From NCBI RefSeq assembly GCF_003334815.1, contig NZ_QOWO01000036.1: 37,286 bases of DNA. The stretch is one strand, 5' to 3'. Every line of letters starts with the position of its first letter. The first letter of the stretch is position 1. The notes under the pieces were generated by a model that saw only the letters and a list, made by a program, of their open reading frames with translations, did no database searches and was not told the origin of the DNA. Positions 12,157 through 12,348 of this stretch are shown here, one piece after another. Made by a program: the position numbers and the translations under genes. The DNA comes from Escherichia coli. GTDB taxonomy: Bacteria > Pseudomonadota > Gammaproteobacteria > Enterobacterales > Enterobacteriaceae.

Positions 12157-12252
12157 ATGAATGTTTCCAGTAGAACTGTAGTACTGATAAATTTCTTTGC
12201 TGCTGTTGGTTTGTTTACTCTTATCTCTATGAGATTTGGCTGGTTTATTTGA
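12157..12252 (+). CDS. yncL: 31-aa small membrane protein
   Basis: ATG at 12157 preceded by AAGGTGG; MNVSSRTVVLINFFAAVGLFTLISMRFGWFI, one transmembrane helix. Below the ORF-track length cutoff. Confidence 0.6.
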   Translation: MNVSSRTVVLINFFAAVGLFTLISMRFGWFI

Positions 12253-12348
12253 TGTAGTGATTTTGCACGCAGCACGTACTGTCAGAGAAATCAGTGCTCT
12301 GACAGTACGCAAGATCATCTCATACTCTTACGATCTGCAATATTATCC

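Follow-up and report, generated by a model that had tools for sequence, protein, structure and literature searches.

A conserved palindrome downstream of yncL in Escherichia coli: probable protective 3' stem-loop of a Rho-terminated mRNA

The perfect inverted repeat that follows the small membrane-protein gene yncL in Escherichia coli probably closes the yncL mRNA at its 3' end as a protective stem-loop; this transcript would be terminated by Rho further downstream and then trimmed back to the stem. The repeat forms a stable hairpin that is single-copy, is linked to yncL rather than to the convergent gene patD, and is conserved through compensatory changes. Published transcript-end maps place the 3' end of yncL a few nucleotides past the stem and document downstream read-through that is sensitive to bicyclomycin. 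In the sequence of events that we propose, RNA polymerase would transcribe yncL and continue past the hairpin; once translation has ended at 12252, Rho would load on the untranslated, C-rich RNA running antisense to patD, and would terminate transcription within a few hundred nucleotides. Exonucleases acting 3'-to-5', which the published model identifies as PNPase and RNase II, would then trim the tail back to the 13-bp stem, which would block them and leave a stable end a few nucleotides beyond it. The mature yncL transcript would measure about 180 nt.

Such elements have been described as a class. Dar and Sorek (2018, NAR, PMC6061677) reported that Rho-dependent transcripts end precisely after stable stem-loops lacking a U-tract, with C exceeding G downstream, and that PNPase and RNase II degrade the diffuse tail left by Rho termination as far as the protective structure. 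By its U-less stem, adjacent 3' end, downstream C-over-G bias and Rho sensitivity, yncL matches this class: the stem is stable and has neither an A-run on its 5' side nor a U-run on its 3' side, the transcript ends immediately 3' of it, and the read-through responds to Rho inhibition. We found no substantive difference between them; that exonucleases create the yncL end, and that the stem raises the stability of the yncL mRNA, is probable by analogy with the transcripts of that class. Both the type of element and the yncL 3' end are already in the literature, where the locus is not discussed individually.

Gene context and expression of yncL

The stretch of DNA analysed here (the window; 37,286 nt, contig NZ_QOWO01000036.1 of assembly GCF_003334815.1) is of the E. 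coli K-12 type around the repeat: a 301-nt query at the locus matches many E. coli chromosomes at 100% identity, and in these the genes concerned are annotated as yncL and patD. The features discussed are collected in Table 1. The yncL product, MNVSSRTVVLINFFAAVGLFTLISMRFGWFI, is called 'stress response membrane protein YncL' in RefSeq, and its orthologues match the Pfam family PF28073 (YncL). An initial annotation of this DNA had described yncL as a 31-aa gene with a strong ribosome-binding site and one hydrophobic helix; the AAGGTGG motif and the coordinates of the ATG and TGA codons are given in Table 1. The automatic call of this open reading frame begins at a GTG three codons 5' of the accepted ATG (12148-12156), and the same likely mis-start has been remarked for the Salmonella orthologue (PMC5437024).

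Table 1. Features of the yncL locus (window coordinates).
Feature	Position	Strand	Description
Putative yncL promoter	12099..12127	+	-35 TTGCGG 12099-12104; 17-nt spacer; sigmaS-like extended -10 CTATACA 12121-12127
yncL Shine-Dalgarno sequence AAGGTGG	12145..12151	+	5 nt upstream of ATG; read from the sequence
yncL coding sequence	12157..12252	+	31 aa, one hydrophobic helix; ATG at 12157, TGA 12250-12252
Hairpin 5' arm CGTACTGTCAGAG	12275..12287	+	13 nt
Hairpin loop AAATCAGTG	12288..12296	+	9 nt; K-12 allele
Hairpin 3' arm CTCTGACAGTACG	12297..12309	+	13 nt; 100% complementary to the 5' arm
Steady-state yncL transcript 3' ends	12312..12317	+	Term-seq 12312; TRS 12316/12317, range 12308-12325
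Untranslated read-through segment	12313..12598	+	Antisense to patD 3' end; C-rich over G; ends at the peak of the Rho region
patD (gamma-aminobutyraldehyde dehydrogenase)	12349..13773	-	Convergent neighbour; outside the element, overlapped by yncL read-through

The extended -10 motif of the putative promoter lies about 30 nt 5' of the ATG and is conserved across all Escherichia and Citrobacter orthologues; transcription would start near 12134. The sigmaS-like character of the motif agrees with the published Term-seq data, in which reads at the yncL 3' end are 7-fold more numerous at OD 2.0 than at OD 0.4, and with the sigmaS dependence of the Salmonella orthologue STM14_1932/STnc1110 (PMC5437024).

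A separate small hairpin, ACGCGCGCAAATATGCGT, occupies 11990-12007, between the start of ortT and the yncL promoter. It is preceded by an A-run and followed by TTTTTT, and therefore looks like a bidirectional intrinsic terminator. Term-seq reports a weak 'orphan' 3' end at this site (MG1655 1517357(+), window 11994, 848 reads) on the patD/ortT strand, and read-through of the patD operon across yncL may end there.

Structure and rarity of the inverted repeat

The first arm of the repeat begins 22 nt past the yncL stop codon. The initial annotation had recorded a perfect 13-bp repeat at 12275-12309, with a 9-nt loop, 22 bp beyond yncL and without a U-run, and each of these particulars proved exact. 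It is the sole perfect inverted repeat of at least 10 bp (loop 3-12 nt) in the entire window, and no inverted repeat of at least 13 bp arose in 200 dinucleotide-preserving shuffles of the window (0/200), a rarity that excludes a chance origin. The predicted RNA fold has an energy of -21.6 kcal/mol on the + strand and -22.5 kcal/mol on the - strand; the z-scores are near -5, and folds as good as these were obtained in none of 200 shuffles.

The surroundings of the stem are not those of an intrinsic terminator. The 10 nt that follow it read CAAGATCATC on the + strand and TGCTGCGTGC on the - strand, with no T-run in these 10 nt on either one, the sequence 5' of the stem (GCACGCAGCA) is without an A-tract, and a terminator scan did not call the site. 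Having no U-tract, the hairpin should not act as an efficient intrinsic terminator. The Rfam covariance models gave no match for the hairpin, the only hit being a chance-level one to STnc320 (E = 6.2) elsewhere in the region. An additional outer helix, predicted on the K-12 + strand to pair 12257-12266 with 12309-12318, was rejected, being neither conserved nor compatible with the mapped 3' end, which would cut it. Recognition of the stem by RNase III was likewise dismissed: this enzyme needs roughly two helical turns, and 13 bp fall well short of that.

Mapped transcript ends and Rho-dependent termination

Public transcript-end maps of MG1655 bear directly on the locus (window position = 1529351 - MG1655 coordinate), and the mapping of 3' ends by Term-seq that the initial annotation had proposed as a check is answered by them: the yncL end lies at the stem. 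In the data of Adams et al. (2021, eLife, PMC7815308, supplementary file 1), the dominant 3' end is MG1655 1517039(-), i.e. window 12312, on the yncL strand and 3 nt past the stem in all three conditions; the reads number 75,265 (LB, OD 0.4), 536,300 (LB, OD 2.0), and 433,399 (M63), where the first two counts were matched to the LB conditions by their position in the supplementary file. This end carries the label 'antisense to patD' in that dataset for the sole reason that its distance from the yncL stop codon exceeds 50 nt. The TRS study (Nat Commun 2023, PMC10687069, supplementary data 2-4) lists a 'Primary' yncL 3' terminus at 1517035/1517034(-), with a range of 1517026-1517043, and prints the same hairpin with an energy of -21.6 kcal/mol. 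Its terminus is 7-8 nt past the stem, so that the two studies disagree slightly (+3 by Term-seq, +7/8 by TRS).

Adams et al. (PMC7815308, supplementary file 2) further report a Rho termination region on the yncL strand, antisense to patD, at MG1655 1516753(-), i.e. window 12598; its peak is 286 nt downstream of the mapped 3' end. Upstream and downstream reads change there from 220/9 in untreated cells to 106/72 with bicyclomycin, which could also unmask an antisense promoter within patD. The Rho score of 16.6 (p = 5e-21) is computed over 800-nt windows and hence does not locate the point of termination itself. The base composition of the yncL strand changes in the direction expected of a Rho loading region: the C/G ratio is 0.56-0.8 across yncL, rises to 1.2-2.1 in 78-nt windows past the hairpin, and amounts to 1.4 over the 300 nt that follow the yncL 3' end. 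On the patD strand, the Term-seq lists hold no 3' end between MG1655 1517000 and 1517199 in the three conditions, which may reflect too weak an expression of patD in the conditions sampled. A tiling-array study reports an altered abundance of yncL RNA in mutants of RNase E or RNase III, so that endonucleolytic cleavage may contribute to its processing.

Among the roles proposed for the repeat in the initial annotation, that of an RNase processing or stability element is the one that these data favour, given ends located 3 to 7-8 nt past the stem together with the compensatory changes across genera described below. The suggestion of a Rho-dependent signal shared with patD holds in part. A Rho region does exist on the yncL strand about 290 nt downstream, with the score given above; trimming probably stops at the hairpin, which is less likely to be the termination signal itself, and the sharing with patD finds no backing in a hairpin that stays with yncL when patD is displaced and for which no patD-strand end is reported.

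Conservation and covariation of the hairpin

For comparison, yncL loci were gathered from six more lineages of Escherichia, E. albertii and E. whittamii among them, from several Citrobacter species, and from one genome with a PatD that shares 97.9% identity with the [Enterobacter] lignolyticus protein (hereafter the lignolyticus-like genome). A genome scan anchored on YdcY supplied 80 loci, six extra yncL loci among them, and a HMMER search with YncL returned six cluster representatives, one of which was usefully divergent (P0126). All 14 yncL 3' regions examined hold a hairpin of 11-16 bp with a predicted energy of -15.5 to -27.9 kcal/mol, located 22-26 nt past the stop codon in the 13 regions from Escherichia and Citrobacter and 43 nt past it in the lignolyticus-like genome. 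A U-tract follows the hairpin in none of the 14; the tails of the orthologues contain 0-3 T in up to 8 nt.

The stem is maintained while its sequence changes. The arms pair as CGTAC/GTACG in E. coli, as CGCAC/GTGCG, ACACAC/GTGTGT, or CATAC/GTATG in other Escherichia, as TCCACAG/CTGTGGA in E. albertii, and as AGGCAGAGAGAA/TTCTCTCTGCCT in Citrobacter, around a core GCAGAG/CTCTGC that is invariant in Escherichia and Citrobacter; in the lignolyticus-like genome an unrelated sequence, TCGATTATCCG/CGGATAATCGA, forms the hairpin at the equivalent place. Standard pairs fill 82.9% of the cells in an alignment of 12 sequences, compared to 29-49% after shifting the partners by 1-3 columns, and two-sided changes occur in that alignment at 8 pairs (19 cells). 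The observed covariation score was reached by none of 500 shuffles, and RNAalifold also recovers the core helix. The loops differ in sequence and are 3 to 11 nt long. In E. coli itself, the frequent polymorphisms sit in the loop (GTG or ACT) and in the 3' flank and spare the stem: the K-12 loop AAATCAGTG differs from AAATCAACT, found in many other E. coli, by three adjacent substitutions that are confined to the loop. In other Escherichia species the loop is AAATCAACT or longer, and as these too end in ACT we take the GTG loop as derived. Covarying arms joined to such varied loops point to selection for pairing and are unlike a protein operator of fixed spacing.

As RNA of the patD strand the palindrome folds just as well, so that the sequence by itself is compatible with selection on either strand. 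Two A.C mismatches, in E. albertii and Escherichia sp. E1V33, are G.U pairs on the patD strand; the count by this comparison is two mismatches in favour of the patD strand against one for the yncL strand. Judged from sequence, there is room for a secondary role of the hairpin in patD transcripts in the K-12 arrangement.

The neighbourhood of yncL differs between genera. In one Salmonella patD locus (L085) yncL was absent within 2.5 kb, other genes being found there, and it was not found beside patD in the loci examined from Enterobacter kobei, Kosakonia, Lelliottia, and Metakosakonia. Some patD loci without an adjacent yncL hold two tandem genes of the ortT family. The gene ydcY adjoins ortT-yncL-patD only in Escherichia (loci L010-L083, compared to L085-L099), and in Citrobacter the patD-yncL-ortT group stands beside a Virul_Fac (SrfB-like) gene instead. 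In E. albertii (L007), further complementary segments, TCTCCCTCT...AGAGGGAGA and GAGGGAGACTCTCGCCTCCCTC, occur about 10-75 nt past the yncL hairpin, where the sequence no longer matches the end of E. coli patD; the contig reaches about 125 nt beyond the yncL stop codon.

A single-copy hairpin linked to yncL

The 61-nt hairpin region has a single match per record in 5,413 records, which come from 5,412 of the 5,426 complete E. coli genomes; six of these records are plasmids, and the number of places per genome has a median of 1 and a maximum of 2. In the window, no further perfect copy of the arm was found, the closest other match having two mismatches. Being single-copy, the hairpin is not a dispersed repeat.

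Natural insertions separate the hairpin from patD and reveal to which gene it belongs. In about 15% of E. coli genomes (e.g. the O26 strain RM8426), an insert of about 1.3 kb that encodes a CatB-related O-acetyltransferase splits the two; the hairpin is still found 22 nt past the yncL stop codon, with patD 1.4 kb away. The same CatB-related insert is present in Escherichia sp. L006, and a different one, with a 103-aa ORF, sits at the same point in C. farmeri; the hairpin remains beside yncL in both. These patD-displacing inserts measure 0.5-1.3 kb and lie downstream of the hairpin, which does not bound them and which is kept 22-24 nt past yncL. Since it stays with yncL when patD is displaced, the hairpin belongs to yncL.

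The gap between the hairpin and the patD stop (12313-12351) is an insertion hot spot that has received unrelated inserts (coordinates 1711-3076 in locus L002, 2926-3494 in L094, which is C. farmeri, and 1594-2097 in L105). In the lignolyticus-like genome the insert at this place carries an 82-aa ORF. In the Escherichia and C. farmeri inserts, the junction on the yncL side still bears the final ~13 nt of patD as a remnant copy (CCTTAATrTTTAC), which suggests insertion or deletion via this short repeat.

Alternative explanations

Two other readings would make the hairpin itself a terminator. It could serve yncL and patD together, a hairpin in both transcripts fixing where the convergent polymerases meet and stop. 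The K-12 arrangement suits such bidirectional terminators and collision sites (Ju et al. 2019; Wang et al., bioRxiv 2022), in that a palindromic hairpin able to fold on both strands lies between convergent genes; patD-yncL is among the convergent overlapping transcript pairs listed in PMC12288877, and in single-molecule work a stem-loop positions head-on polymerase collisions at convergent boundaries (bioRxiv 10.1101/2022.10.23.513370). Unlike those sites, however, the hairpin is without flanking A- or U-tracts, has an end reported on the yncL strand only (none on the patD strand in the interval and the three conditions given above), and keeps to yncL where the inserts of E. coli, Escherichia sp. 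L006, and C. farmeri have displaced or replaced the convergent partner. The read-through on the yncL strand is, moreover, strongly Rho-sensitive, and we consider a shared terminator improbable. The hairpin might instead halt the polymerase alone, as a non-canonical intrinsic terminator that does without a U-tract, and the mapped end would then be the point of release. The sharp and strong Term-seq end just 3 nt past a stable stem speaks for it, and the length and energy of the stem as well as its position in the 3' UTR are within the range of canonical intrinsic terminators. Against it stand the absence of a U-tract, on either strand, in all orthologues examined, and the read-through under Rho inhibition: downstream reads amount to 68% of the upstream reads with bicyclomycin, compared to 4% untreated, which implies that most polymerases pass the hairpin. 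The TRS ends, moreover, are spread over 12308-12325, as suits nibbling better than a fixed site of release. This possibility, too, appears slight.

The initial annotation had also entertained a protein binding site, and the perfect dyad symmetry with its core invariant in Escherichia and Citrobacter could be that of a dimeric regulator, e.g. at a LexA-like box, for the K-12 sequence TACTGT-N8-TCAGTG has the CTG-N10-CAG spacing. This match needs the GTG loop allele of K-12 and is lost in the ACT allele and in the other species. The outer arms change and yet stay complementary, the arms are 3 to 11 nt apart, a hairpin of unrelated sequence takes the same place in the lignolyticus-like genome, and the repeat lies downstream of a gene and not at a promoter; a regulator site is accordingly very improbable, and we set that claim aside. 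A dispersed repeat of the REP/BIME kind, or the end of a mobile element, is hardly credible at all. REP elements are palindromic, reside in 3' UTRs, and likewise protect Rho-dependent transcripts, so that the yncL hairpin resembles these stabilisers as a 3' UTR palindrome of a Rho-terminated gene that would, by analogy, block exonucleases; the adjoining gap, for its part, is an insertion hot spot. The hairpin differs from REP/BIME elements, however, in being locus-specific and without the REP consensus, its region being found at no more than two places in any of the 5,412 E. coli genomes that hold it and the hairpin itself having no Rfam match, and the inserts lie downstream of it instead of being bounded by it.

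Significance of the yncL stem-loop

The preferred reading, a protective stem-loop on a transcript terminated by Rho, leaves aside what the RNA beyond its coding function might do. The pair patD-yncL has been listed as a convergent excludon (PMC12288877), yncL RNA is present in sRNA interaction maps with RprA and KilS, and the transcript is abundant by its Term-seq 3'-end reads. In this respect it resembles STnc1110 of Salmonella, a short and abundant stationary-phase transcript, a sigmaS-dependent 'sRNA' that was shown to contain the yncL orthologue (PMC5437024). We regard it as unlikely, if somewhat less so than the alternatives above, that yncL read-through tunes patD as a true excludon or that the hairpin-capped yncL RNA has a dual function. 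Were the former true, sigmaS-induced antisense transcription from yncL would tune the putrescine-catabolism gene patD in stationary phase, over a read-through length set by Rho and by the influence of the hairpin on the fate of the RNA; were the latter true, the capped transcript of probably some 180 nt would act as STnc1110 was first taken to do.

More generally, when a perfect palindrome without a U-tract follows an E. coli gene, the simplest reading is that of a protective 3' stem-loop on a Rho-terminated transcript, and the public Term-seq tables can settle such questions about 3' ends directly. For yncL, the 3' boundary of the transcript is hereby defined and the dataset label 'antisense to patD' is corrected. 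This is of use for engineering or deleting yncL without disturbing patD, and otherwise adds little beyond annotation; the element has been conserved together with yncL in at least three enterobacterial lineages.
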